A stretch of DNA of 64,000 bases, taken from Dethiobacteria bacterium. Lineage in GTDB: Bacteria; Bacillota; Dethiobacteria; DTU022; UBA8154. The notes below the pieces were generated by a model. It had not been told where the DNA came from. It was given only the letters and a program-made list of their open reading frames with translations, and made no database searches. Shown one piece after another: positions 9,813-64,000 of the stretch. The translations under genes and the position numbers were made by a program. The stretch's first letter is position 1. Every line of letters begins with the position of its first letter. The stretch spans positions 12,385 through 76,384 of the forward strand of contig JBMNNQ010000001.1 of the NCBI GenBank assembly GCA_050942615.1. Reading direction: 5' to 3'.

Positions 9813-10451
9813 CTATGCATTCCTCTTCCAGATAGAAATGCGCTCCAGGGTTGTTAAAAAACGGGCTACAAATAACACTACATCCGTTGGTCTGTTAATA
9901 GCCAGTGTTTTACCCAATGCCTTGCCGCCCACTGTTAAAGCGGATACCGCTCCTGCCAAAAAAATACTCAAAATAACTTCACTTAGTATTGGGTTACCCC
10001 GGACAAGGTTAACCACGATCACTGTCCCAATGATGCCGCTTACTATGCCGCTGATGTCCCCGATGACATCATTACAAAAGCTGGCCACCAGATCTGCATG
10101 GCGTACGAGAAAAATGCTTTTTTTTGCACCATAAATTTTTTTAGCCGCTTTGGCATGAAAAGGTATCTCCTCTGCCGCAGTAACGGCAGTGCCAATCACG
10201 TCAAAAAAAATGCCCATAAAAATAATGAAAATGAGAAGCATAAAGGAAATCAGCATGGAATGCAGGTTTTGCAACAAGGAGTGTGTGATCAGGGTAAGGG
10301 CTATGGCCAAAAAAAAAGTCCAAATACTGACTAAAACCACCCAGCGTTTATTATTTTTACTTTTCCATTGTTTTTGCCGTTGTTTTTTTGTGCCCAATAA
10401 TATTACGCTCGCTGCCATATAATATGATAATGATAAAAGTGGCAGCTCCAT
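9813..10451 (-). CDS. oapA: OLE-associated membrane protein OapA-like (multi-TM). Start uncertain: 10451 or 10499
   Basis: Polytopic membrane protein encoded immediately downstream of the OLE-like RNA and upstream of dxs. This is the conserved ispA-OLE-oapA-dxs arrangement. Sequence identity to characterised OapA could not be checked here. Confidence 0.6.
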   Translation of the reverse strand: MELPLLSLSYYMAASVILLGTKKQRQKQWKSKNNKRWVVLVSIWTFFLAIALTLITHSLLQNLHSMLISFMLLIFIIFMGIFFDVIGTAVTAAEEIPFHAKAAKKIYGAKKSIFLVRHADLVASFCNDVIGDISGIVSGIIGTVIVVNLVRGNPILSEVILSIFLAGAVSALTVGGKALGKTLAINRPTDVVLFVARFLTTLERISIWKRNA

Positions 10452-10454
10452 GGG

Positions 10455-11065
10455 TAAACTTTGCGGCTTAAGGTCCAGCAGGTTTTCCCAAATGTTCACC
10501 GGCTTGTCACCAAGCGGCAGTTTCCTATTAAGAACATCTCTGCTGTGTTACCACCAACAGGGCTGGATTACCACTTAGACCACACCTTAATCCCCATGGA
10601 GCCTCCCTACGACGGGGAACAGCCTAGGAGTTTTCCTCAATGCCGCAACATCGTTTTCTATCCTTTTTTGCAGCCCTGGTTTCCTAAGGGATGTTCCCTT
10701 CCTCCCCCAAAGCCACTCAAGGCAGGCTACACTGTGCACAGTTTTGACCACACACAGGTTCTATCCTAAGCCGTAACCTTTTACCCCTACAGTAATACGC
10801 CACCAACTTAGGTCTCCACGAAGGCAGGGTCAACGCCTACATGCCTTTGTAGATCGCCCCGTCCTTCTTAACCCCCAGCACCGACCCCCGTCTGGGCTTC
10901 GGCCGCCGGCACCAGGAACTTCATCGATATGCCTTGAGCGGTTTTTCCCGCCCGCTTTCAAAAACGCTTGCGGCAACTAGGATACTGCACCACTATGTCC
11001 AGTTAAATTATAGCATATCATCCCTGGCAACTCAACGCTATTCCCCGGGCGAAAAGTCTAGGGGT
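10455..11065 (-). ncRNA. ole: OLE (ornate, large, extremophilic) RNA candidate
   Basis: About 600 nt with no protein-coding capacity in any frame, GC-rich with many short complementary segments. It lies exactly between ispA (stop at 11066) and a multi-TM gene followed by dxs, which is the diagnostic genomic context of OLE RNA in anaerobic Firmicutes. A TATAAT-like element sits near 10995-11010 on the minus strand. RNase P and tmRNA motifs were not found. Confidence 0.7.
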
Positions 11066-51234: not shown

Positions 51235-52155
51235 TTACATACTTTGAAATGTCTGCATAATACGAATTAAGGCCGGCCCCAACAGAACAACAAACAGGGT
51301 TGGAAAAATAAAAAATACCAGGGGGAAAAGCATTTTGATCGGTGCTTTCATCGCTGCCTCTTCAGCACGCTGGCGCCGTTTTCGCCGCATGGCTTCAGCC
51401 TGGATACGCAAGGTGTTGGCAATGTTACTGCCTAATTGTTCAGACTGAATTACAGCGCTGATAAAGCTGCTCAGGTCCTGCACCCCCGTGCGCCCGACGA
51501 TGCTGCGCAGGGCCTCTTCCCGGGTCTTGCCCAGCCGCATTTCCTCCAGGGCCCGCGCTATTTCCTGGCCCAGAATACCGGGCGCCTGTTCAGTAACCCG
51601 CTTCAAAGCCATATCAAAACCCAACCCTGCTTCCGCACTGACCAACAGCAGGTCAAGGGTATCCGGTAAACTTTTTTGAATTTCATGCTGGCGCTTTGCC
51701 GCCCGTGAATTTAGCAGTCCCACGGGCAGCGTTGCCCCGCTGGAAAAGGCCAGGAACAAGAAAAACACAGTTCTTTGTTCCCCCCAACCGGCAAGCCGGA
51801 TCGCCATCCCCGCCAGGAAAACAAAAAAAACAGCCAGCAGGGCCTGCAGGGAAATTAAACTGTTAAAGTTCATCTTGCCGGGGTTTCCCGCATAGCCGAT
51901 CTTTTTTTCCAAACCCTGGCGGATTTCCCGGGGAGTTAAATTGCCCAAAGCGGCACCTAGTTTACGGAAGACTGGTTGAATTATTCTTTCAAAAAACGGT
52001 TTCCGCAGCTCATCTTCTGTGGCATTTTCTGCCATTTTCCTAATGGTTTGCAGCCGCAGGGCAACCTGTTTTTGGGGGCCCCAAAAAACTTCATAAAAAG
52101 CAGTCACCAGGAGAACAACGGTGGCAAAAAGCAGAACGTTGACCAGCAATAACAT
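51235..52155 (-). CDS. tadC: Tad pilus platform protein TadC (GspF family)
   Basis: 306 aa with three TM helices and a GspF-like domain. Confidence 0.8.
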   Translation of the reverse strand: MLLLVNVLLFATVVLLVTAFYEVFWGPQKQVALRLQTIRKMAENATEDELRKPFFERIIQPVFRKLGAALGNLTPREIRQGLEKKIGYAGNPGKMNFNSLISLQALLAVFFVFLAGMAIRLAGWGEQRTVFFLFLAFSSGATLPVGLLNSRAAKRQHEIQKSLPDTLDLLLVSAEAGLGFDMALKRVTEQAPGILGQEIARALEEMRLGKTREEALRSIVGRTGVQDLSSFISAVIQSEQLGSNIANTLRIQAEAMRRKRRQRAEEAAMKAPIKMLFPLVFFIFPTLFVVLLGPALIRIMQTFQSM

Positions 52156-52170
52156 TTTTTCACCCCTGAA

Positions 52171-53139
52171 TCAAACTTCGATATTGACAATTTTACGAAT
52201 CACGATAATCCCGGCAATTTGCAACACCACAGCCAAACCCAACAGGATCAGGCCCAGTGTGTCCCGGACCAGCGTCAACATATATTCCGGGTTCATAAGC
52301 ATCAGAAAAGCAGCCACACCAAGGGGTAACAGGATGATAATCAGGGCCGATAACCGGCCTTGTGCGGTCAGTGTTTTAATTTCCCCCTTAATACGTACAC
52401 GTTCACGGATAGTCTGTGAAATATTATCAAGAATTTCTGCAAGGTTGCCCCCAACCTGCCTTTGAATAAGCAAAGCGGTAATCATTAAGTTAAGATCCTC
52501 ATTCCCGGCTCTTTCCCCAAGGTTATGCAGCACTTCTTCCAAAGGTTTGCCCATCTGGTTTTCCCAGATCGCCCGGGAAAATTCCTCCCCTATTGGCGGT
52601 CCCATTTCCCGGCCGACCACGGACATTGCCTGGGGAAAACTATAACCGGCCCGCAATCCGTTGGAAACTATCGTCAGCGCCTCCGGCAACTGTTGGGTCA
52701 AAGCATTGATGCGCCGGCTTCTTTTCATCCCGATGACAAGATCAGGAACTTTGTAACCCACCAACCCGGCCGGTAAAGCCAAAAAAAAGTGTCCTGTAAT
52801 CAGGTAAAAGAAAATAAAAACGGCTGTTCCAACACAGACTGCCAAGCCGATAAGCTCTTCTGCACGCATTAAGACATGAGCCTGCAGCAGTTTTTGCTGT
52901 ATACCCTGCAGATTGGCCCGGCGCGAGGGCATGGTTCCCAATAGCCTCAAAAAACGCCGAAACCCTTTTTTTAAACCTTCGGCCCCAGCCTCCTCCGGTT
53001 GCTGATAGTCCGGAGACAATATGCCGGTTTTTAATCTTTCCAAAACAAGGTTACGGGAGGCAAACAACGTATAATAAAGACCTGTAAATAAGAAAACCAC
53101 AGTTAGAAAAGCGCCGCCCAGAACAGCTAGTTGCAACAT
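52171..53139 (-). CDS. tadB: Tad pilus platform protein TadB (GspF family)
   Basis: Start at MLQLAVLGG. GspF-like domain. Confidence 0.8.
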   Translation of the reverse strand: MLQLAVLGGAFLTVVFLFTGLYYTLFASRNLVLERLKTGILSPDYQQPEEAGAEGLKKGFRRFLRLLGTMPSRRANLQGIQQKLLQAHVLMRAEELIGLAVCVGTAVFIFFYLITGHFFLALPAGLVGYKVPDLVIGMKRSRRINALTQQLPEALTIVSNGLRAGYSFPQAMSVVGREMGPPIGEEFSRAIWENQMGKPLEEVLHNLGERAGNEDLNLMITALLIQRQVGGNLAEILDNISQTIRERVRIKGEIKTLTAQGRLSALIIILLPLGVAAFLMLMNPEYMLTLVRDTLGLILLGLAVVLQIAGIIVIRKIVNIEV

Positions 53140-53140
53140 T

Positions 53141-54526
53141 TCAGTGCCTCCTAAAGGCCGTTTCAAAATTTTTCGCCCCGAATAAGCCCTTGGGTAGCTT
53201 TTCCCCAAAAGTTTGCAGTTTTTCCATGTTGCGGGGAATAATGCCGGTGGGCACATGTTTTCCGGCAATGCGGCCCCTTTCATTAAATCCCGTTTGTTCA
53301 AAAATAAAAATGTCCTGCAAGGTAATAATATCCCCCTCCATCCCTGCTACCTCCGATACTTTGACAATCTTGCGGCTGCCATCAGGAAGGCGGGACTGTT
53401 GAATAATCAGGTCAATAGCCGAGGCAACCTGCTCACGGATCGCCCGCAAAGGCAGGTTTATGCCTGCCATAAGCACCATGGTTTCCAGGCGCGCCAGCGC
53501 GTCCCGGGGGTTGTTGGCATGCAGGGTGGAAATGGAGCCGTCGTGGCCGGTATTCATTGCCTGCAGCATGTCAAGTGCCTCGCCTCCCCGCACCTCTCCA
53601 ACCACAATGCGGTCCGGGCGCATACGCAGTGAGTTAATCACCAGATCACGAATTGTGATTTCCCCATGGCCTTCAATGTCTGGAGGGCGGCTTTCCAGGG
53701 TAACAACATGTTCCTGATGCAGTTGTAGTTCTGCGGCATCCTCGATGGTTACAATTCTTTCCTGTTCGGGGATAAAACCGGAGAGCACATTTAAGGTCGT
53801 CGTTTTGCCGCTGCCGGTCCCCCCGGAAACAATAATATTGAGGCGGGCCAGCACTGCAGACTTGAACAGGCGGGCAATCTCCCCGGTCATGGTCCCGAAA
53901 TTAATCAGATCCCCGGGGGTCAAGGGCTTTGCCGCAAACTTACGGATAGTCAAGGCAGGCCCTTTTAAGGCCAACGGCGGAATGATGGCGTTAACACGGG
54001 AACCGTCCGGCAGGCGGGCGTCAACCATGGGCGACTTTTCATCCAGCCTTCTGCCCAAAGGGGTTACAATTTTATCGATAGTTTCAAGCAGATGTGCATT
54101 ATCACAAAAAGTAATCCCTGTTTTGATGATCTTCCCCTTTTGCTCCACATAAACCAACCCGGGGCCGTTAACCATAATTTCTGAAATGGTGGGATCCCGG
54201 AGCAGCGGGTTAATTGGCCCGTAACCACAGGCTTCGTCATAAATATGCCCGGCAATTTTTTCCTTGTCAGCCCGGGAAAGTTCAAGCCCGGAATCTTTGA
54301 GTACCGCTTCCAAGGCTACACTGATCTGCGCTGAATACTTTATTTTCTGTTGGGCATCCATTTTTCCGACAACAGGTGTCTTGCCTGGGCTTTCAAGAAC
54401 CCTGCGCAAAGTTGCGGTGATCAGGCCCTCCCATTCCTTTTTCCTGTTGAGGCCGTAATTTTCAGTTACAGGTTCTTTCCCCCCAGGGGCGAAGGCCCAT
54501 TGTGGCGGCAATTTCATTTTTCTCAC
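53141..54526 (-). CDS. tadA: Tad pilus assembly ATPase CpaF/TadA
   Basis: Walker [13 protein letters not shown], Asp box, Walker B and His box ([15 protein letters not shown]). Confidence 0.92.
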
Positions 54527-55728
54527 CTTTCCATTTCCTTTACTTCTGCAGCCTGCTTTTCCAGCCCTTCTGCTACCACCTGGCGTGCCAGTCTTATAAA
54601 GCCGCGGCTGACTTTGGATCGGGGGAAAAGCATTACTGCCGGAATACCTTTATTCAAGGACGAAGAAGTTAACCTGTATTCAGCCGGCAGAACGCCAAAA
54701 AGATCTTGTTCAAGGGTTGTTTCCACATCCCGCCTTTTGATTTCACTGCGGGATACTGCCTTGTTCAGCAGTAACTTAATCTTCTGCCGGGGGTAATTCA
54801 GGGAGTCAAGCATTACCCGGCAGGCTTTAACATTGCGGATGGCAGCCACATCCTGGGTGGTAACCAAGAGGAGCAGCCCTGCCTCCTGCAGGGCCGGATT
54901 AACTGGTTCAGAAAAACAGGCCGGCATATCCACCACTACATATTCAAAATTATTCTGCAGCGCTTGCAGAATCAGTCTGACCTGTTCTGCGTTAATAAAC
55001 CCGGCTGCCTGCGGGTGTGCTCCGGATGCCAACAACTTGATTCCGGAGCGGTGTGCAATAAGATATTCACCGATCAAATCCTGATCAGGATTATGAATTT
55101 CATTAAGTACATCATAGATCGTATAACGGGGAAGGATGTTTAAAGCCAAGGCTGCATTACCAAAATCCAGATCCAGATCGACCAGTGCAACTGTATTTTT
55201 GGTGTGCTGTGCCAAAGCTATTGCCAGGTTTGTGGCAATAAACGTTTTTCCCACACCCCCTTTGGTGCTGAAAACTGTTACAATTCTGCCCTGGCGGGGT
55301 TTTTTAGGCCCGACAGGTCTATTGTTCTGCAGGCTGGCCAGTTTTTTTTTCGCAGACTGGTAACAGTGGTAGATGGAAGCAGCCAGTTCAGCCGGTGTAA
55401 AGGGTTCGACAAGCACATCGCCGGCCCCGGCCAGGATGGCTTTGCGCATCGATTCCCCCTGGAGTTCAGTTTCCAGCAGGATCGGGGCGATCCAGGGGTA
55501 AACAGTGGCGATTTCTTCCGACAGCAAGTATCCATTGCCTGCTACAAGGCGCCCGATGACCAGTACGTCGGGTTCAAGCTCTTCAACTCCCTCTAAAGCC
55601 TCTTCCCTCGCTTCTGCTCCACCGATCACCCGTATATATTCCACTGCAGAAAGCGCTCCTATAATATCGGATCTTTTTTCATCGTCTTCCTCTACTACCA
55701 GTACTTTGATATGCTCCATATTCATCAC
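54523..55728 (-). CDS. tadZ: CpaE/TadZ: receiver-like domain fused to a ParA/MinD-type ATPase
   Basis: Deviant Walker A FSTKGGVGKT and an N-terminal REC-like fold. Confidence 0.85.
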   Translation of the reverse strand: MMNMEHIKVLVVEEDDEKRSDIIGALSAVEYIRVIGGAEAREEALEGVEELEPDVLVIGRLVAGNGYLLSEEIATVYPWIAPILLETELQGESMRKAILAGAGDVLVEPFTPAELAASIYHCYQSAKKKLASLQNNRPVGPKKPRQGRIVTVFSTKGGVGKTFIATNLAIALAQHTKNTVALVDLDLDFGNAALALNILPRYTIYDVLNEIHNPDQDLIGEYLIAHRSGIKLLASGAHPQAAGFINAEQVRLILQALQNNFEYVVVDMPACFSEPVNPALQEAGLLLLVTTQDVAAIRNVKACRVMLDSLNYPRQKIKLLLNKAVSRSEIKRRDVETTLEQDLFGVLPAEYRLTSSSLNKGIPAVMLFPRSKVSRGFIRLARQVVAEGLEKQAAEVKEMER

Positions 55729-56447
55729 CTTTCCCGGAAAGAACCTAGGTTGGCAGCATTGTAATGCTGTAAGTGCATTTTTTCCTCATCCAAAGGTGAA
55801 CGCAGAGTAAAATAAAAAGAGCCTTTCAGCTGGGCATAGGCCAAAACTTCAGCCTGTCCCGGTGTCACAGCCAGGGTGATGGTGCCAACCGGCTGCTGTT
55901 CGTCAGTATCCTGTTCCCGGGTAAGTTCCCCTGCAGCCATCACAGGGGCGTTTTGTATAATAGTATAGGTTACGGCAGCGCCACCGTTAATTTCTTCATC
56001 AGAATAGGTTACCAGCACGTCAACCTTGTCCCCAGGGGAGATATACCCTGAGACCCCTGTAATTTCATTCACGGGAAGCGAGATCGCCCGCCTTTTTTCA
56101 GGTACCCGGTAAGAAAAACTGCCCTGTCCCTCCATAGCTATCCTGGCAGTCAACAGCTGTTCCCCCTCCACGATTTCAGCGCGGGAAATGCTGCCTGCTG
56201 CTGCCTCCAAATCCCCAAAGGCCTCCGGATGAACGGCCCCCGCGGGGAGGGATTCCACTGCAAGCATCTCTGCCGTAATCCGGGTATGTTTTGGAATAGT
56301 ACTTTTAGCTACAACTACATCTGTATAGGCCGTTACCTCTACAGCCTGTGCACCGGAGGCAAGACTTTGCAGGTAGCAATTCAGAGCCAGGACGGTGCCC
56401 AGAGCAAAAATAACAGCCGCCAAAAGAAGAAGCCTGCCGTTTTTCAA
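55725..56447 (-). CDS. cpaB: Flp pilus assembly protein CpaB (SAF/RcpC domain)
   Basis: N-terminal TM helix, SAF domain and a conserved C-terminus (GTITLAVTPGQAEVLAYAQLKGSFYFTLR). Confidence 0.85.
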   Translation of the reverse strand: MKNGRLLLLAAVIFALGTVLALNCYLQSLASGAQAVEVTAYTDVVVAKSTIPKHTRITAEMLAVESLPAGAVHPEAFGDLEAAAGSISRAEIVEGEQLLTARIAMEGQGSFSYRVPEKRRAISLPVNEITGVSGYISPGDKVDVLVTYSDEEINGGAAVTYTIIQNAPVMAAGELTREQDTDEQQPVGTITLAVTPGQAEVLAYAQLKGSFYFTLRSPLDEEKMHLQHYNAANLGSFRER

Positions 56448-56519
56448 CGTACTTACGCCCCTCTCAAAAAAACAGTTTCCTGATTGAACTGCTCAACTAG
56501 TACTTGGTTTCCAAACAAA

Positions 56520-57530
56520 TTATTCTATTAACCGGGCGGCACGCACCCCGTCTGCAGGCAGTTCATCATCAGGTGCTGCTGCCTCAACAATTGTTTTGGT
56601 TCCCGGTGGCGGGGCAATTGATAAAAACCGGCCCTGCACCTTACATTCATTTCCCGACCCCACAGATTTCTCAAGAAGCATGGCCGCAAACCTTGCTATT
56701 TCCACTTCGTCCCTGCCCCTTAAATCTGCCGGTTTATATACCGGTACAATAATCACCCGCGGGCAATCCGGGTGATAGCCGCCGTCGTATGTACATTTAG
56801 GCGTATGCGGGCATTGATCAAGGCGATATTGTATACCCCCCCGAGTCATCCTGGACATATTTCCGGGCTCTGTGGTAACTAAGGATCCCACACTTAAAAC
56901 GCCCTTATAACCATACCTAATATTATATCCATAGTTTCTTGCACCCCTGCCCCCCAGGGCAAGACCACCGAAGTTACCGTGAATTTCAGGAATCCCGGCA
57001 CCAAATTTAAGCATAACCTCTTCCCCGGGTTGGAATCCCCCGGCACGATCTGGAACGCCAAAAGGAACCAGCGGTGAACATGCACACTCGCTGCAGTCAA
57101 TTATAGTTGCAGTACCAAAAACAGCCTTGGCCCCGGCTGTCACCACCCCGGTGTTCACCCCCAATACCCGTGCAAACGTCAAATCTTTATTACATGCAGA
57201 GGAAACCCCAACCATTTTTGTAGACATATCCACTGTAATTGCCGGCGTTTCATTAATATTATTATTTTCCAGGTATTCCACAGCCTTCTGGCGTGTCGAG
57301 GATTCGTCTCCGGTATAATATAATTCCTGCGCAGCAGCCAATGCTGCTGCATCACAAGCATTCTGCAGTCGCCTTTTTTCCAGTGCCAGGATGCCCGTAT
57401 CAACCACAAGCGCCGTCATCCCCAGCAGGGCCAGCATTCCTGCAGCAACAAAAACCATTGCCAAACCGTCCTCTTCACCTAATAAAGTTTTTACTTTTTT
57501 ACAAACAAGCCGGAACAACTTAGCAAGCAT
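56520..57530 (-). CDS. tadG: TadG-like pilus-associated protein (Tad_N / TadE-G-like N-terminal segment)
   Basis: N-terminus ...EEDGLAMVFVAAGMLALLGMTALVVDTG and a Cys-rich C-terminal domain. Confidence 0.65.
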   Translation of the reverse strand: MLAKLFRLVCKKVKTLLGEEDGLAMVFVAAGMLALLGMTALVVDTGILALEKRRLQNACDAAALAAAQELYYTGDESSTRQKAVEYLENNNINETPAITVDMSTKMVGVSSACNKDLTFARVLGVNTGVVTAGAKAVFGTATIIDCSECACSPLVPFGVPDRAGGFQPGEEVMLKFGAGIPEIHGNFGGLALGGRGARNYGYNIRYGYKGVLSVGSLVTTEPGNMSRMTRGGIQYRLDQCPHTPKCTYDGGYHPDCPRVIIVPVYKPADLRGRDEVEIARFAAMLLEKSVGSGNECKVQGRFLSIAPPPGTKTIVEAAAPDDELPADGVRAARLIE

Positions 57531-57619
57531 ATCATTTCTCCCGCAATGATCTATTTGGTACAGATACAAGCCCGGTAAACAAAGTTGGCTGCTAAAGCCG
57601 CAAAAAGGCGCACTGTGTG

Positions 57620-58045
57620 TTAATCAGGCACGGGGTAAGATTCGCACCGCATCTCGGCCTTGGCAGACAAAATGAACAGATCCTTGTTAAGAACCCGGTC
57701 AAAAAAGGGCACTGCCCCGACAGCAGCAGTAAATTCCACTGTAACATCCCCATCCTCATACCTGGCTGCAGGCGCCGGTTCTATTTCTATCCCGGCCGGG
57801 TCGATTCTGATAAAAGGCATCAGTGAAGAAACTGCCATTACCTTGTCCTTTACTGCAGCGTCTGATTTACCTACAACAGCCAGCCTCGCCCCTTCCTTAG
57901 CTGCGCTGGCAATGACAATCTGGCCGCTGAAAATCATGGCAAACTGAATCAGACCCAATACCGCTAATAGCATTATCGGTAAAAGGAGGGCTGTTTCCAC
58001 CAGAGACTGGCCTTTCTTGTTATTATTAAGACGACTGACAGCCAT
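57620..58045 (-). CDS. tadE: TadE/TadF-family pseudopilin
   Basis: Contains GQSLVETALLLPIMLLAVLGLIQF. Confidence 0.75.
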   Translation of the reverse strand: MAVSRLNNNKKGQSLVETALLLPIMLLAVLGLIQFAMIFSGQIVIASAAKEGARLAVVGKSDAAVKDKVMAVSSLMPFIRIDPAGIEIEPAPAARYEDGDVTVEFTAAVGAVPFFDRVLNKDLFILSAKAEMRCESYPVPD

Positions 58046-58082
58046 TTCATGCTTTCTCCTAACCGGGACGTTAATCAAAAAA

Positions 58083-58490
58083 TTAGAATGGGTTTTGAAT
58101 GCGCATGGTACATTGGGCGCACAGGGGATATACCCTGTTGCCTTCCTTACCTAAGAAGGGCATGATCAGATCTGCATTGGCCGGAACAGTAACGGTGATC
58201 GCTTGTCCCCCGGCAGCTAGCACCTCAATTGGTCTCCCGGCATCCGGTTCCAAAAAAGGGGTGGAGGCAATAGTATTGTTAATCTTCGTTTCAACCGCTG
58301 TGTCAGGTTTCCCCACCGCAGCCATGCGTGCCCCTTCCCTCGCAGCACCGGTAATTGCTATCTGCCCGTAAAACAAAATACCACATTGCAAAACGCCCAG
58401 GATTAACAATAGAATCAGGGGTAAAGACAGGGCAAATTCCACCATGGATTGGCCCCTTTCATTTTTTATGGAATGAAAAAACCTGGACAA
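58083..58490 (-). CDS. tadE: TadE-family pseudopilin
   Basis: Contains GQSMVEFALSLPLILLLILGVLQ. Confidence 0.75.
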   Translation of the reverse strand: MSRFFHSIKNERGQSMVEFALSLPLILLLILGVLQCGILFYGQIAITGAAREGARMAAVGKPDTAVETKINNTIASTPFLEPDAGRPIEVLAAGGQAITVTVPANADLIMPFLGKEGNRVYPLCAQCTMRIQNPF

Positions 58491-58536
58491 AGGATCTCAC
58501 CTGCAAAATAAAAATTTATAATAAACCGGTATTATT

Positions 58537-59130
58537 TTAAAACAGGGCAGCCAGCGGCAAAATTCGTTCCCCAAAGCTGCTAATAACAAGTAATGTTCCC
58601 ATTACAATGGCCACACCGTAAGGCATGTAGACCTTGTTCCCCGGGTTATTACCCCTGCAGGAAAAAAAATAGAAAGAAAACCTGTTTAAAAAAGGGTAGC
58701 CATACCGGAAATAAAGCACATTAAAAAAGGGAACAGCCACAATGCCTATGATTTTTTTCAAAGTGTTCCCCAGCTGCCTGTTGACCAACAGATAACCCAG
58801 GGCCAAAATTCCCCCGCAAAAAGCGGTAAAAAGTGCAACCTGAAAAACAAACTGTACACCCTGCAGCGCCCCGATAGCCCCCATCAGCTTCACATCCCCA
58901 CCGCCCATACCCCCCAGTATAAAAGGGATAAAAAAAAGGGCCAACCCCAACAAAAGGCCATAAAGGCCGAACAAAAACCCTGCCCCTCCGCCCATAATTG
59001 TATTGGCAACCAACCCCCAAAGCATAACCGGGAAAGTCAGGAAGTTAGGTATTCTTTTCTGTATCAGGTCGAAATAAAGGGTTAGTAGCAGCAAGGTTAA
59101 AAGAAGGTAATTATTGAGTTGAATAAACAT
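58537..59130 (-). CDS. tadV: A24-family prepilin peptidase TadV/CpaA (short form)
   Basis: Catalytic Asp motifs YFDLIQKRIPN and GGMGGGDVKL. Confidence 0.85.
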   Translation of the reverse strand: MFIQLNNYLLLTLLLLTLYFDLIQKRIPNFLTFPVMLWGLVANTIMGGGAGFLFGLYGLLLGLALFFIPFILGGMGGGDVKLMGAIGALQGVQFVFQVALFTAFCGGILALGYLLVNRQLGNTLKKIIGIVAVPFFNVLYFRYGYPFLNRFSFYFFSCRGNNPGNKVYMPYGVAIVMGTLLVISSFGERILPLAALF

Positions 59131-59487
59131 TTTTTCCTCCAAAGAATTTATATAAAATGACTGTGTACAGTAAAAATTCAATAATAAACTGTATTAAATG
59201 TAACTATAACTACCACCGTAAACAATAATATACTGCTGTTTTAATAATGATTCCGAACTATTTTCTGCAAAAAAGATTAAAGTATTATTATCTGAAATAC
59301 AATAATTATTTACCCTATAAAAAGAAACACCTGCTGTTTATAATCAGCACATTCCTTCTATATCCTTAATTTATTTGTTTAAGGCCTGCCCAAGGGAACC
59401 TAACTCAAAAGGTAAAAGCTGGTTCCCTTGCAGGTTCTATCTTTTGTAGAAAAGCCTTTGTTATGTTTTAACCTGTTTGTTTAACTG

Positions 59488-59679
59488 TTATTCACTAAAG
59501 TCGACTCCTACCCCCTTTATTCCTTCCCCGATTGTCTTAAATTTATCAGCAATATTTGTACCCAATGCTCTCAAACCAACAATAACAACCGCAGCAATTA
59601 GGACTATAATTAAAGCATATTCTACTAAACCTTGGCCTTCTTCGTCCTTAATAAACCTAGTAAAAAGCTGCTTTAGCAT
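59488..59679 (-). CDS. flp: Flp-family type IVb pilin
   Basis: 63 aa. GGAGG RBS. Flp motif ...EEGQGLVEYALIIVLIAAVVIVG with the processing site after G. Confidence 0.85.
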   Translation of the reverse strand: MLKQLFTRFIKDEEGQGLVEYALIIVLIAAVVIVGLRALGTNIADKFKTIGEGIKGVGVDFSE

Positions 59680-60031: not shown

Positions 60032-62450
60032 TTACACAGGCTTCCCCACCGGACACAGGGTCAGGTAAAAAACACCCTGGAAACAGGCGTAGGCGAGCAG
60101 TTCGGCTTGGGCAGGGGTTACCGCCAATGTTATGGAACGGGGGGCGGATGGGTTGTTTTCTACATTGTTTTGAATGTTGTTTCTTGGGATTTCCAGCACG
60201 ACAGCATTTTGGGCAACGGTGCGGGCAGCCTGTTGCATGTGGGCTGCCTGGTTGTTATAGATTACTAGGACGTCAACCTGATCGCCCGGCTGTAGATGAC
60301 TGTAAAGTCCGCCGCTTTCATTTATGGGCAGAGCCATGCCCCGCCGGCCGGGTGGTATGGAAACGGCCCAGCCGTTTGGCCTTCTTACATCTGCCGCAGC
60401 ATTTTTTGCAGGGGCAGCTGAAGCTGTGTTTTGCGTCTTTGCCGCTCTGTCAGCTGGCATGACTGCATATTCTGCTGTCGTAGCCAATCTGGCATCCTCT
60501 TCTTTCCAGGTGTTTGTCCCCTGCTTTACATCCGACGGATGGAATCCACCTTCCCCTTTTTCCCCCATAGCATCCCCGGACCGGCTTTCACTTTCCTTTA
60601 CCTTCCCTGCAATATCCAACGGCTGATCTTCGTTGTCCTTTACCTCCCCTGCAAACCCCTGCAGCAGGAGCCTCCTTGACCCCCTTTTTTCCGCAGTAGC
60701 GGGCTCAAAGGCCTCTTCCTCACTATAATTAACTGTGGGCTGAGGGCCTGCACCTGTTTTAGCCGCAATATCCCCTGAACTATGGGCATAATTGCCGGGG
60801 ATATCTGCCAGAAAACCAATCCTCCTTTCTGGAATTTTTGTTGCATAAACTGTATTTTCAGTTGAAACAGCAACATCACTGAGTATCAGATTGTTAGCAG
60901 TCAGCACTGCAGCACTGCCTGCCCTTTTTTCAGCATCCGTTCCCAACCCTTTTTCTATTAATGGATATTTCTTTTTTAAGTCCCCTTTCAGGGCAGGGAA
61001 GCTCTCTTCCGGGGTGGGGTAGGCAAAGGTCCCGTCTGTAGCGATCTCTTCCCCACAGGCCTTCAGTTTTTCCAGGCAACGGGGCACGACACCTGTGGGT
61101 CGGTATTCACCTTTGATGCGCCCCTCTTCATCTATGGATGACTGCTGAAAAACAAAGATATCGTTGACTACCAATTTGTCTTTCTTCAGGCCTGCTACTT
61201 CGCTGATTTTTGTGATTTTACGGCTGCCGTCACTAAGGCGGGACTGTTGCACAACTAGCTCCACCGCCGAGCCAATCTGTTCACGGATGGCCCGCAGGGG
61301 CAGTTCGATGCCCGCCATGAGGATCATGGTTTCCAGCCTCGCCAGGGCATCCTGGGGGTTGTTGGCGTGCAGGGTGGATATAGAGCCATCGTGCCCGGTG
61401 TTCATAGCCTGCAGCATGTCAAAGGCTTCGCCGCCCCGGACTTCCCCCACGATTATCCGATCCGGGCGCATACGCAGGGAATTGATCACCAGTTCCCGGA
61501 TGGTAAACTGCCCTTTGCCTTCAATGTTTGCCGGGCGGCTTTCCAGGGTAACAAGGTGATCCTGCTGCAGCTGCAGTTCGGCGGTGTCTTCAATAGTGAC
61601 AATACGTTCACTGCCGGGGATAAAACTGGAGAGGACGTTTAAGGTTGTAGTCTTGCCGCTGCCGGTTCCACCGGAAACTACGATGTTAAGCCGTGCCCGT
61701 ACACAGGCGGCCAGGAAGCGGGCCATTTCCCGGCTCAGCGTACCAAAGTTAATCAGGTCGTCGGCAGTGAAAGGATCGGCAGCAAACTTGCGAATCGTCA
61801 GGGATGGGCCACGCAGGGCCAGGGGGGGGAATGATAGCATTTACCCGGGAACCATCAGGCAGACGGGCGTCAACAGTGGGGGAACTTTCGTCAATCCTTC
61901 TGCCTAAAGGGGTAATAATCTTATTAATAACATGCAGGACATGGTTGTCATCACGAAAGGTTGCCCCTGTTTTGCTGATTTTTCCCTTCCGTTCAACGTA
62001 AACATTGGCATAGCCGTTGACCATAACCTCCGTTACACAGGGATCCTGCAACAGAGAGGTTATCGGCCCATAGCCAAATATTTCATCAGCAACATATTCG
62101 ATAACCTTTTTCCTGTCATCCTGAGAAAGAAGCTGTCCACTTTCTTCCAGCAGCCCCGCAAGGGTATTACAAATCTGTTCATCAAACTGTTTTTTTTGAA
62201 GGGGGTTCAGTTTATCCAGTTCCAGCTGCTTATCAAAGCTGTCAATTACCCGCCGCAAGGTTTGGGCAGCAATCTCCTCTAACCTTTTTTTCTTGCTCAC
62301 ACCCTTTTTGGGAATTGATGATGCCTTTGCCCGGGTTTTTGCAGTGCTGTTTCGTCCTGGAAGTATAAACACTTTTTTATGCCACCTTTTCAGCCCCCTA
62401 ATACCCCCAGGGCTGATTTTTTGAAGGTAAGAATTAAAATGAAAACACAA
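60032..62450 (-). pseudogene. Second cpaF/tadA-like ATPase gene split by a +1 frameshift in a C8 homopolymer (G8 on the plus strand, 61822-61829). Its downstream reading frame continues without a stop into a complete CpaB-like SAF domain that lacks a TM helix
   Basis: ORF 61749-62450 encodes the CpaF N-terminus and ends ...[15 protein letters not shown] 60032-61840 starts ...[15 protein letters not shown] with Walker [10 protein letters not shown] and the full ATPase core. Removing one C from the tract restores IIPPLAL, identical to the intact tadA at 53141-54526. The C-terminal ~300 aa align to CpaB (...[28 protein letters not shown] versus TITLAVTPGQAEVLAYAQLKGSFYFTL). Confidence 0.6.
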
Positions 62451-62483
62451 AAATCCCTGGTTGCCGGGTATGCGAACCAGGGA
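62434..62483 (-). terminator. Intrinsic terminator (10-bp stem AUCCCUGGUU...AACCAGGGAU followed by UUUUUGUGUUUUCAUUUU); likely the expression platform of the upstream riboswitch
   Basis: Perfect 10-bp inverted repeat at 62452-62483 and a U-run of about 5 followed by GUGUUUUCAUUUU on the minus strand that extends into the first codons of the downstream ORF. Confidence 0.7.
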
Positions 62484-62524
62484 TCAAGATACCAAAAGGT
62501 GCAGAACGACACAATCGTTCTTAT

Positions 62525-62645
62525 TTAGAACCCTGTCTTCGGCAGCCTGGCAATCCTAGCCTGCTTTGGCAGGCCTTAGACCCATAGCTTTGCGTCCCTT
62601 TCTTTCAAAAGGTTTGCCTTTATCGGTCAGTAAGCTGGTTACTTT
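62525..62645 (-). promoter_or_regulatory. GEMM-I (c-di-GMP-I) riboswitch aptamer candidate
   Basis: Minus strand reads AAAGGCAAACCUUUUGAAAGAAAGGGACGCAAAGCUAUGGGUCUAAGGCCUGCCAAAGCAGGCUAGGAUUGCCAGGCUGCC. This matches the GEMM-I core GGCAAACC-(GAAA hairpin)-GGGACGCAAAGC (compare Vc2 GGCAAACCAUUCGAAAGAGUGGGACGCAAAGCC) and is followed by a second hairpin and then a terminator. Located 5' of the tad/flp genes. Confidence 0.65.
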
Positions 62646-62842
62646 TGTAAGTCAGGTGAATGGTCTTATTTCAACAAAAGTTGTTTTTGGACATTTGCTC
62701 CTAACAAAACTGGTAATTTCTACACAGTTCTACAAAGAAGTTCTACATGGATTTGGTTTTTCCTGCAAATAATAATAATTTTTCATAATAAATTTATTAA
62801 AATTTGATAACATGATTGTCTTTACTACATTGTTTAAAAACA

Positions 62843-63874
62843 TTATAGCCGGGGGTTCCGGGCAGGAAGGTTAACTTCTAGGGCTATTTCTGCAACCTGT
62901 GGATCAAATTGGGTGCCGGCACAGCGGCGCAGCTCCTCCCGTACCTGCACCGGGGTTTTTGCCGGGGCATAGGGTCGGTTGGAAAGCATGGCATCAAGGG
63001 CATCGGCAACGGCAATAATCCGTGCCCCGTAAGGGATCTGTTTGCCCCGGAGACCTTCCGGGTAACCTGTCCCGTCAAATTTTTCATGGTGATAGAGGAT
63101 GATGGGCCGTTCTTTCTGCAAGAACCCAACAGGGGAAATGATTTCTGCGCCGATGACAGGATGTTGTTTAATAATTTTAAATTCCTGTTCTGTCAGCCGG
63201 CCGGTTTTTCTAAGAATCTGTTCGGGCACACCTATTTTTCCGATGTCATGCAAAATTGCTGCCTGCCATAAAACCTTTTTTTCCTCCTCCGGAAGGCCTA
63301 TTTTCTCCCCCAGGATCCCTGTAAAAAAAGCAACCCTTTCCTGATGCCCTTTGGTATAGGAATCTTTGGCATCAATTGCAGCCACCAGGGATCGCACTGT
63401 TTCCAGGTAATGATTTTGGATGTTCTGGCGGGCATTATCTATTTTTGTCCGGAGGGAGGCGTTGACCACCTGCAGCTCACTCTGCTTTTTCAACAGGGCA
63501 GCCTGCCTGGTACGGCGAACCAGCCCTTTTTTAACAACTTCTTTCACCGCACTACTGTCAAACGGTTTGATCAGATAATCCAGGGCACCCCGGCGCAGGG
63601 CGTTGGTGGCCGTTTCCACAGAAGCATAGGCGGTAATCATCACCACTTCTGTTTCCGGCACCTTGCTTTTGACCAAGGCAAGAAGATCTATGCCGTTAAT
63701 GTCGGGCATCCTGATATCCAGGATCACCAGATCAAATTCCTCAGCATCCAAATGGGCCAAAGCCTCGGCGCCACAGCTCGCCGTAGAAACTTCATAGTCA
63801 TCCCGCAGGATCATTTTCAGGGCTTCCCTAGGGCCCAGTTCATCATCAACAACCATTATTTTGGGGGTATTCAT
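62843..63874 (-). CDS. Response regulator with an HD-GYP c-di-GMP phosphodiesterase domain
   Basis: Receiver domain (KIMVVDDE...DLVILDIRMPDING) and an HD-GYP domain (HDIGKIGVP...HHEKFDGTGYPEGL). Start at MNTPKIM, preceded by GGAGAGGAG. Confidence 0.85.
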   Translation of the reverse strand: MNTPKIMVVDDELGPREALKMILRDDYEVSTASCGAEALAHLDAEEFDLVILDIRMPDINGIDLLALVKSKVPETEVVMITAYASVETATNALRRGALDYLIKPFDSSAVKEVVKKGLVRRTRQAALLKKQSELQVVNASLRTKIDNARQNIQNHYLETVRSLVAAIDAKDSYTKGHQERVAFFTGILGEKIGLPEEEKKVLWQAAILHDIGKIGVPEQILRKTGRLTEQEFKIIKQHPVIGAEIISPVGFLQKERPIILYHHEKFDGTGYPEGLRGKQIPYGARIIAVADALDAMLSNRPYAPAKTPVQVREELRRCAGTQFDPQVAEIALEVNLPARNPRL

Positions 63875-64000
63875 CTTTCCAGCACTCCTCTCCGGAAAAG
63901 ATCGGTAAAAATACTTCAATTTCAAGGTAATGATCCCTTGTTAAGGAGGCCCTGACCTGCCCGCCGTGATCCTCAATAATTTTTCGGCTGACCGGCGGCC

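Follow-up and report, generated by a model that had tools for sequence, protein, structure and literature searches.

The stretch of DNA considered here, a window of 64,000 nucleotides from Dethiobacteria bacterium (GenBank assembly GCA_050942615.1, contig JBMNNQ010000001.1, positions 12,385 to 76,384 of the forward strand), carries on its minus strand a riboswitch for cyclic diguanylate (c-di-GMP) of class I, the GEMM-I type, followed by a transcription terminator and a gene for a pilus ATPase. A first-pass annotation had placed such an element between an HD-GYP response regulator and the tad/flp gene set, and the flanking genes are as it described. Upstream lies a gene for a response regulator with an HD-GYP domain (62843..63925, minus strand; Response_reg 8e-28, HD_5 1.7e-36, with the motif HHEKFDGTGYP), the product of which is a putative c-di-GMP phosphodiesterase. 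The element does stand upstream of Tad/Flp pilus genes, but the gene immediately downstream is not flp; it encodes a CpaF-type ATPase with a C-terminal RcpC/CpaB domain (60032..62372, minus strand), and a region of 353 nt separates this fusion gene from flp. The element, a canonical riboswitch of the c-di-GMP-I (GEMM-I) class with a platform for transcription termination, presumably binds c-di-GMP; it is a routine instance of this well-characterised class and not a new kind of element.

The aptamer occupies 62538..62628 of the minus strand. A search with RF01051 had been named in the first-pass annotation as a check on its reading, and Rfam cmscan matched this family to 62628-62538 with 85.8 bits (gathering score 35) over model positions 1-87 of 87 and with E=1.5e-15 for the whole 64 kb, a match far beyond chance. 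Only two families exceed the Rfam threshold in the window, RF01051 and a distant OLE RNA, and a permissive Rfam re-scan of 62400-62720 gave nothing credible besides RF01051. The core elements quoted for the minus strand of 62434-62645, namely GGCAAACC, the hairpin CCUUUUGAAAGAAAGG, GGGACGCAAAGC and the apical hairpin GCCUGCCAAAGCAGGC, were all found where they had been placed. The first hairpin, CCUUUUGAAAGAAAGG (62597..62612), has the GAAA loop 62606-62603, and the second, the receptor hairpin (62544..62589), has tetraloop-receptor-like bulges, CUAAG on the 5' strand and UAGG/UAUG on the 3' strand, together with the apical stem GCCUGCC/GCAGGC; as judged from the letters, a GNRA tetraloop in hairpin 1 is therefore matched by an apparent receptor in hairpin 2. 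The GC-AAA-GC linker between them is invariant across 11 orthologues, and in GEMM RNAs generally the hairpin linker is nearly always AAA (Weinberg 2007, PMC1950547). The inner closing pairs join CG 62625-62624 with CG 62541-62540. The outer closing helix P1, with its 5' strand CUG at 62628..62630, has only 3 bp in the window (CUG/CAG) and is the weakest among the leaders compared below (z +0.75). The aptamer tail with the P1 3' strand, GCCGAAGACAGGGUUC (62528..62543), is the proposed 5' half of an antiterminator. Because unconstrained RNAfold fails to recover the GEMM-I fold, the structure derived from Rfam was imposed as a folding constraint.

For the ligand-contact positions, the window was aligned to the RF01051 consensus and to the related RF03167 model, the latter including the closing helix. 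In Vc2 numbering, and on the minus strand, the equivalent of G20 is 62618, the G preceding the first GC pair; that of A47 is 62591, the A directly past GACGC, with which the invariant AAA linker opens; and that of C92 is 62542, the unpaired C past the second hairpin. From the Vc2 structures we take G20, A47 and C92 to be the canonical c-di-GMP contacts, with G20 presumably contacting one guanine of the ligand (an A stands here in the c-AMP-GMP variants) and C92 serving as the Watson-Crick partner of its second guanine. The conserved G/C/A positions, on the presence of which the first-pass annotation had made its assignment depend, are all there.

Past the aptamer, an intrinsic terminator hairpin lies at 62452..62485 (minus strand), with an equivalent in all 11 orthologous leaders. 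Its arms, AUCCCUGGUU (62484-62475) and AACCAGGGAU (62462-62453), form a perfect stem of 10 bp, which RNAfold lengthens to 13 pairs from 62485 to 62452 at -18.6 kcal/mol, and the U-tract UUUUUGUGUUUUC (62441..62453) is directly 3' of it; sequence and fold together give the GC-rich hairpin and, in UUUUUGUGUUUU, the U-tract of an expression platform. The perfect 10-bp stem and U-tract had been recognized beforehand, but the distance of about 40 nt given for them was too short: the terminator begins 53 nt past the Rfam end of the aptamer, or 46-47 nt past the closing helix. A consensus terminator scan did not have the hairpin 62485-62452 among its predictions, presumably owing to the interior bulge, the rule of the scan being an uninterrupted stem with a loop of 3-8 nt. 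That the hairpin serves as terminator of the upstream HD-GYP gene was ruled out, as it lies 357 nt past the stop of that gene and after the aptamer, and as in the orthologues the same aptamer-terminator arrangement follows different upstream genes. Between aptamer and terminator, the spacer (62487..62531) can form either of two small hairpins, GUUCU/AGAAC at 62531-62517 or AGAACG/CGUUCU at 62521-62503, but not both at once; it also contains GCACCUUUUGGUAUCU (62502-62487), a possible pairing partner for the 3' strand of the receptor hairpin. A Shine-Dalgarno sequence, AAAGGUGG (62382..62389), precedes the GTG start at 62372 by 9 nt, and the gene calls of two relatives, L002 and L090, have the same ribosome-binding site and start. 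Just ahead of this site, the hairpin CAGCCCUGGGGGUAUUAGGGGGCUG at 62391-62415, followed by TTTTTT when the plus strand is read, looks like a terminator for antisense transcription. On the other side of the aptamer, the sequence AACCAG (62635-62640, minus strand), on the 5' side of the closing helix, has the same letters as part of the terminator 3' arm and, read as 62640-62635, can pair with the terminator 5' arm so as to enclose the whole aptamer; it is absent from the closest relative, L002.

The controlled gene is a paralogue of the canonical CpaF gene of the cluster (53141-54526), with 53% identity in the N-terminal part and 70% in the ATPase core. A hydrophilic linker of about 220 aa joins the ATPase to the RcpC/CpaB domain (PF16976, 5e-19). 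The fusion protein has no hydrophobic segment like the membrane anchor of canonical CpaB (best 19-mer 1.51 vs 2.49), and for this reason its RcpC-like domain is probably cytoplasmic. Members of the fusion family vary in a low-complexity linker and in total length (629-1203 aa), some have a CLIPPER_2 domain, and they have no membrane segment. In the window the gene is split into two open reading frames (ORFs), 62372-61749 and 61840-60032, at a run of eight C (C8, 61829-61822). Removal of one C gives a continuous protein of 779 aa and restores the residues found in the paralogue and in all orthologues; in the orthologues, the PPL at this site is encoded with interrupted codons. The same C8 is present in L001, an independent Logan assembly 99.3% identical to the window, and the split is seen both there and in five or more assemblies of the 90% cluster, whose members span Logan, JGI and NCBI assemblies with contigs up to 93 kb. 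This cluster holds only post-frameshift ORFs of 564-603 aa and two short fragments (55 and 178 aa), none intact; one NCBI record in it is named 'Dethiobacteria bacterium', and the NCBI annotation of the gene consists of the 178-aa 'CpaB' piece only. Three other G8/C8 runs in the window sit within uninterrupted ORFs. Since the same C8 recurs in independent assemblies and the other 8-mers are in frame, an assembly error was rejected and the frameshift is genomic. Between the window and L001 the ratio of nonsynonymous to synonymous differences is 12:5, the single indel is in frame, and all 11 amino-acid differences fall in the linker or an RcpC loop, with 0 in the ATPase core of about 270 aa, a pattern that may be weak evidence of continued constraint. 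The split may reflect a pseudogene, phase variation or +1 recoding at CCC-CCC-C.

The relation between riboswitch and fusion gene was followed in other genomes by searching a protein collection with the frameshift-corrected 779-aa protein. Many CpaF-RcpC fusions were returned, with relatives named Dethiobacteria, Candidatus Contubernalis and Syntrophonatronum. Eleven loci were retrieved, and the ten with upstream DNA (L002, L083-L090 and L215) make, with the window, 11 leaders. A GEMM-I aptamer stands directly upstream of the fusion gene in every one of them (60-88 bits in the ten relatives), followed in every one by a GC-rich hairpin and a U-run. The riboswitch association tracks the fusion gene and not the Tad operon, because L086 (Ca. 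Contubernalis alkalaceticus) and L087 have the fusion gene alone, without flp/tad genes, and the riboswitch is still present. At 80 loci with distant CpaF proteins from other phyla (48-60% identical) there was no match to a covariance model made from the 11 leaders; these control loci came from a contig scan with the corrected fusion protein, which was dominated by one generic peptide pattern and gave no orthologous leaders, and in two of them the CpaF match extends into the C-terminal RcpC region. Rfam GEMM models likewise had no match at two fusion-like loci of Chloroflexi and at six of Bacillales (Bacillaceae-type). When metagenomes were scanned for the aptamer core pattern CGCAAAGCYATGGGTCTAARG, 120 GEMM-I loci came up, with many unrelated downstream genes, mostly for signal-peptide proteins, with Flp pilins in two (L146 and L153). 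None of the 120 carries the fusion gene, and thus the pattern is not specific to the fusion-gene subfamily; loci with this pattern were also seen upstream of methyl-accepting-type proteins and response regulators.

Comparison of the 11 leaders supports the aptamer fold. Over both hairpins, each with compensatory changes, and the inner closing pairs, 92% of the alignment cells are paired and 9 pairs are changed on both sides. The covariation score of 0.325, compared with 0.199 in shuffles, was attained by none of 500 shuffles, and slid-alignment controls had far fewer paired cells (at most 53%). The outer P1 helix also covaries among the orthologues, as CCUG/CAGG, AACCUU/AAGGUU, AUUCCUG/CAGGAAU and CUCC/GGGG, with a Stouffer z of -5.1. 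Beside these conserved features, a run of U4-U6 is found 0-4 nt past the 3' strand of the closing helix in eight of the 11 leaders (L083-L089 and L215), and not in the window, L002 or L090; it could be a pause site, or make a weak terminator of the ligand-locked closing helix. The L090 spacer (about 100-230) has three tandem modules of about 45 nt, each a hairpin with UUUUGUAYCUUU, of which the window and L002 have one copy. Additional GEMM-I switches of the same subfamily occur at L002 (4218-4319), L083 (2977-3063) and L084 (2024-2109 and 7424-7511). They precede EAL-HDOD genes (L002, L083), an unknown 400-aa gene, and flp (L084), and share the tail and terminator design; several are labelled 'GGC' by Rfam despite A47.

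Folding and comparative evidence were brought together for the direction of switching. As the first-pass annotation had suggested, the transcript was folded for mutually exclusive pairings, and in the predicted folds an antiterminator derived from the aptamer does compete with the terminator. In all 11 leaders the 3' part of the aptamer, which runs from the last nucleotides of the receptor hairpin through the GCCGAAG tail to the 3' strand of the closing helix, has its complement in the terminator 5' arm or in the few nucleotides just ahead of that arm; in the window, CGAA-GA-CAGGG pairs with CCCUG-G-UUCG. For the window, the duplex of tail and 5' arm comes to -16.7 kcal/mol; over the 11 leaders it ranges from -13 to -19, and in each of them it is better than the mean for composition-matched shuffled arms (mean z -1.9). 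The complement in the arm covaries with the closing-helix strand, as GGGGAU/AUCCCC in L084 and L085, AGGAC/GUCCU in L083, AAGGUU/AACCUU in L088 and UACAGG/CCUGUA in L086. A forced aptamer fold was used as proxy for the ligand-bound state. With the aptamer forced, the terminator forms in 11/11 leaders, and in unconstrained full-length minimum-free-energy (MFE) folds it is missing in four. When the transcript ends short of the 3' arm, the 5' arm makes at least one pair at or upstream of the aptamer tail in 10/11 leaders, with only 2-3 such pairs in three of those; in the window, folded with 15 nt of 5' flank, some of these pairs are with the upstream AACCAG and not with the tail. The equilibrium probability of the terminator, P(terminator), is at least as high with the aptamer forced as with it free in 11/11 leaders, rising from 0.00 to 0.85 in L083, 0.02 to 0.99 in L088, 0.004 to 0.89 in L086 and 0.10 to 0.57 in L002.

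Because the 5'-arm complementarity is present in 11 leaders and forcing the aptamer never lowers P(terminator), a transcriptional OFF switch, in which ligand favours the terminator, is predicted with a probability of roughly 0.6. Without ligand, the 3' part of the aptamer, GCCGAAGACAGGGUUC, including the P1 3' strand, would pair with the terminator 5' arm, GAUCCCUGGUUCG, and with this antiterminator formed RNA polymerase would continue into the ATPase gene and perhaps further, into flp and the other Tad genes, the extent of read-through past the ATPase gene being conjectural. With c-di-GMP bound, the closing helix and junction would be locked and the tail sequestered, and the 10-13 bp terminator would then form, so that transcription would stop at the U-tract near 62441-62453.

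Among characterized systems, we take Vc2 from the Vibrio cholerae tfoY leader to share the three-helix architecture, the GAAA tetraloop with its receptor, and G20, A47 and C92; it differs in having no intrinsic-terminator platform of this kind and in the gene controlled. A parallel in function is Cd1 (Cdi-1-3), from the flgB leader of Clostridioides difficile: it, too, is a Firmicute element in which a class I aptamer precedes an intrinsic terminator, and ligand binding raises termination (OFF) of an operon for a surface appendage (PMC6366702). Cd1 controls flagellar genes, however, and is experimentally validated, whereas here a Tad-type ATPase gene is controlled and OFF is a prediction. The seven functional class I switches of C. 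difficile all turn transcription OFF (PMC6366702). Bc2, before a cap gene of Bacillus thuringiensis, is likewise a class I aptamer in a Firmicute acting on transcription read-through (PMC6366702), but with polarity opposite to that predicted here, and with Bc2 being ON the polarity of a class I switch is not deducible from class alone. Cdi-2-4, before C. difficile pilA1, is a c-di-GMP switch for a Gram-positive type IV pilus working by termination and antitermination, but it has a class II aptamer, serves a type IVa and not a Tad (type IVc) pilus, and is ON (PMC6366702). The GEMM elements in Table 2 of Weinberg et al. 2007 include ones upstream of cpaA (Flp/Tad), pil and HD-GYP genes, as here, but no CpaF-RcpC fusion ATPase is listed as a target, and the terminator model given there is ON with a terminator that overlaps the second hairpin, whereas here it is separate and complementary to the aptamer tail (PMC1950547).

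Several observations weigh against the OFF prediction. Shuffled GC-rich arms also pair strongly, so that z at any single locus is modest. In the window itself P(terminator) rises little (0.56 to 0.70), the outer closing helix is merely CUG/CAG (z +0.75), and AACCAG 62640-62635 can pair with the terminator 5' arm whether the aptamer is folded or not, although it is not conserved in L002. The free MFE fold of the window keeps the terminator and pairs the 3' strand of the receptor hairpin with the spacer GCACCUUUUGGUAUCU. The calculations are of nearest-neighbour type, blind to tertiary contacts and kinetics. More often, too, c-di-GMP induces pili and adhesion. The free MFE fold and the common induction of pili and adhesins by c-di-GMP are also what one would expect if the same aptamer were an ON switch, in which, without ligand, GCACCUUUUGGUAUCU and its neighbours captured the aptamer 3' half and the terminator formed, and with c-di-GMP the freed spacer or another element blocked the terminator and the ATPase and pilus genes were induced. 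Precedent for such polarity exists in class I Bc2, in the class II switch before C. difficile pilA1 (both PMC6366702), and in the ON model for GEMMs with a terminator overlapping the second hairpin (Weinberg 2007, PMC1950547). In the present leader, however, the terminator is separate from the aptamer, 46-53 nt downstream, and forcing the aptamer lowers P(terminator) in 0/11 leaders. The aptamer-forced folds have the spacer pairing with the 5' arm nowhere except for 3 pairs in L084 and L089, and the spacers of only about 10-25 nt in L087, L215, L088 and L089 leave no room for an anti-aptamer element, while those short-spacer orthologues still keep the complementarity of tail and terminator arm. 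An ON switch is thus regarded as unlikely. A further point against the OFF prediction concerns the target, in that the controlled gene is frameshifted here and the switch may regulate a pseudogene.

The riboswitch could on this account be intact but idle, its target being a pseudogene made by a 1-nt insertion in the C run, and flp and the Tad genes being transcribed from a promoter of their own in the 353-nt region. The restoration of a paralogue- and orthologue-like sequence on removal of one C, the same split in L001 and at least five assemblies of the 90% cluster with none intact, the lone 178-aa 'CpaB' piece annotated by NCBI, and the 12:5 ratio against L001 are all consistent with it. But the aptamer, terminator, ribosome-binding site and start are fully kept, the 11 differences from L001 all lie outside the ATPase core with the indel in frame, and at CCC CCC C, a proline-stalling site of the classic +1-slippery kind, recoding or phase variation is possible; the three other G8/C8 runs inside intact ORFs speak against a general assembly artefact. 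We consider an idle switch rather improbable, and it would bear on the target gene and not on the RNA element. It is also conceivable that the aptamer senses another cyclic dinucleotide, either c-AMP-GMP (GEMM-Ib), for which a riboswitch variant exists (PMC7266159), or whatever the 'GGC' or 'UAU' variants bind. Clan competition in Rfam does label L002, L087 and L215 as c-di-GMP-I-GGC, but this label is an effect of E-value calibration, 74 bits with RF03167 giving a smaller E than about 86 bits with RF01051, and for the window RF01051 is the best family. The RF03167 consensus, GACGC-G-AAGC, has G at the A47 position; the window and each of the 10 orthologues read GACGCAAA, with A there, and model alignment thereby rules out the 'GGC' variant for L002, L087 and L215. 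Position 92 is C, and position 20 is G not A; A20 is reportedly the rule for c-AMP-GMP (GEMM-Ib), and the G at 62618, invariant in all 11 leaders, excludes that class. Another ligand is accordingly most improbable.

The remainder of the neighbourhood is that of a pilus locus. The flp pilin gene (59678-59488, minus strand) has a G/LVEYAL motif, and its L001 counterpart is called Flp_Fap. With flp at its head, the Tad/Flp cluster past the fusion gene, assigned from Pfam matches and ORF reading, extends over 51235..59678 on the same strand, flp being followed by the prepilin peptidase, two TadE, TadG-like, CpaB, CpaE/TadZ, canonical CpaF, TadB and TadC, the last two being T2SSF matches; judged by these genes, the component set of a Tad/Flp (type IVc) pilus locus is complete. 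Just past the flp stop is a hairpin, GGGAACC...GGUUCCC (59390-59425, minus strand), without a clear U-tract, which may be an attenuator setting the ratio of pilin to machinery. Upstream of the riboswitch, the sole consensus-like promoter site, 62800-62772, is weak, and shuffled sequence yields such sites at least as often. Three direct TGTAGAA(C) repeats at 62718-62747 (minus strand), 13 and 10 nt apart and some 90-120 nt ahead of the aptamer, could form an array of transcription-factor sites; only 12 copies occur in the window on both strands, against about 5 expected, and we take the motif to resemble the Spo0A box TGTCGAA. The OLE RNA (RF01071) is full-length, at 10423-11009 (minus strand) with 443 bits, and fits an anaerobic Firmicute of extremophile type.

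GEMM elements in pilus and HD-GYP contexts have been known since 2007 (PMC1950547). What is newer is that the switch is strictly paired with a CpaF-RcpC fusion ATPase, that OFF is predicted for a Tad-related gene and that the C8 frameshift is fixed; literature searches returned no paper on a riboswitch before a Tad ATPase or on a CpaF-RcpC fusion, which is not proof of absence. A wider proposal combines these, with the Dethiobacteria-related clade having a dedicated OFF riboswitch on an undescribed second Tad motor, made only at low c-di-GMP and altering pilus dynamics (e.g., extension vs retraction), and with the gene gated again in this species by a phase-variable or +1-recoding C8; in that full form it is speculative and doubtful.

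In summary, the element would extend the c-di-GMP regulon to the Tad (type IVc) pili of an uncultured, OLE-RNA-bearing lineage of anaerobic Firmicutes, and singles out a conserved target, the CpaF-RcpC fusion ATPase, that is riboswitch-led in every leader examined. If the OFF direction is true, low and not high c-di-GMP would license the second motor, and this would provide a testable handle on the switching of a monoderm Tad pilus.

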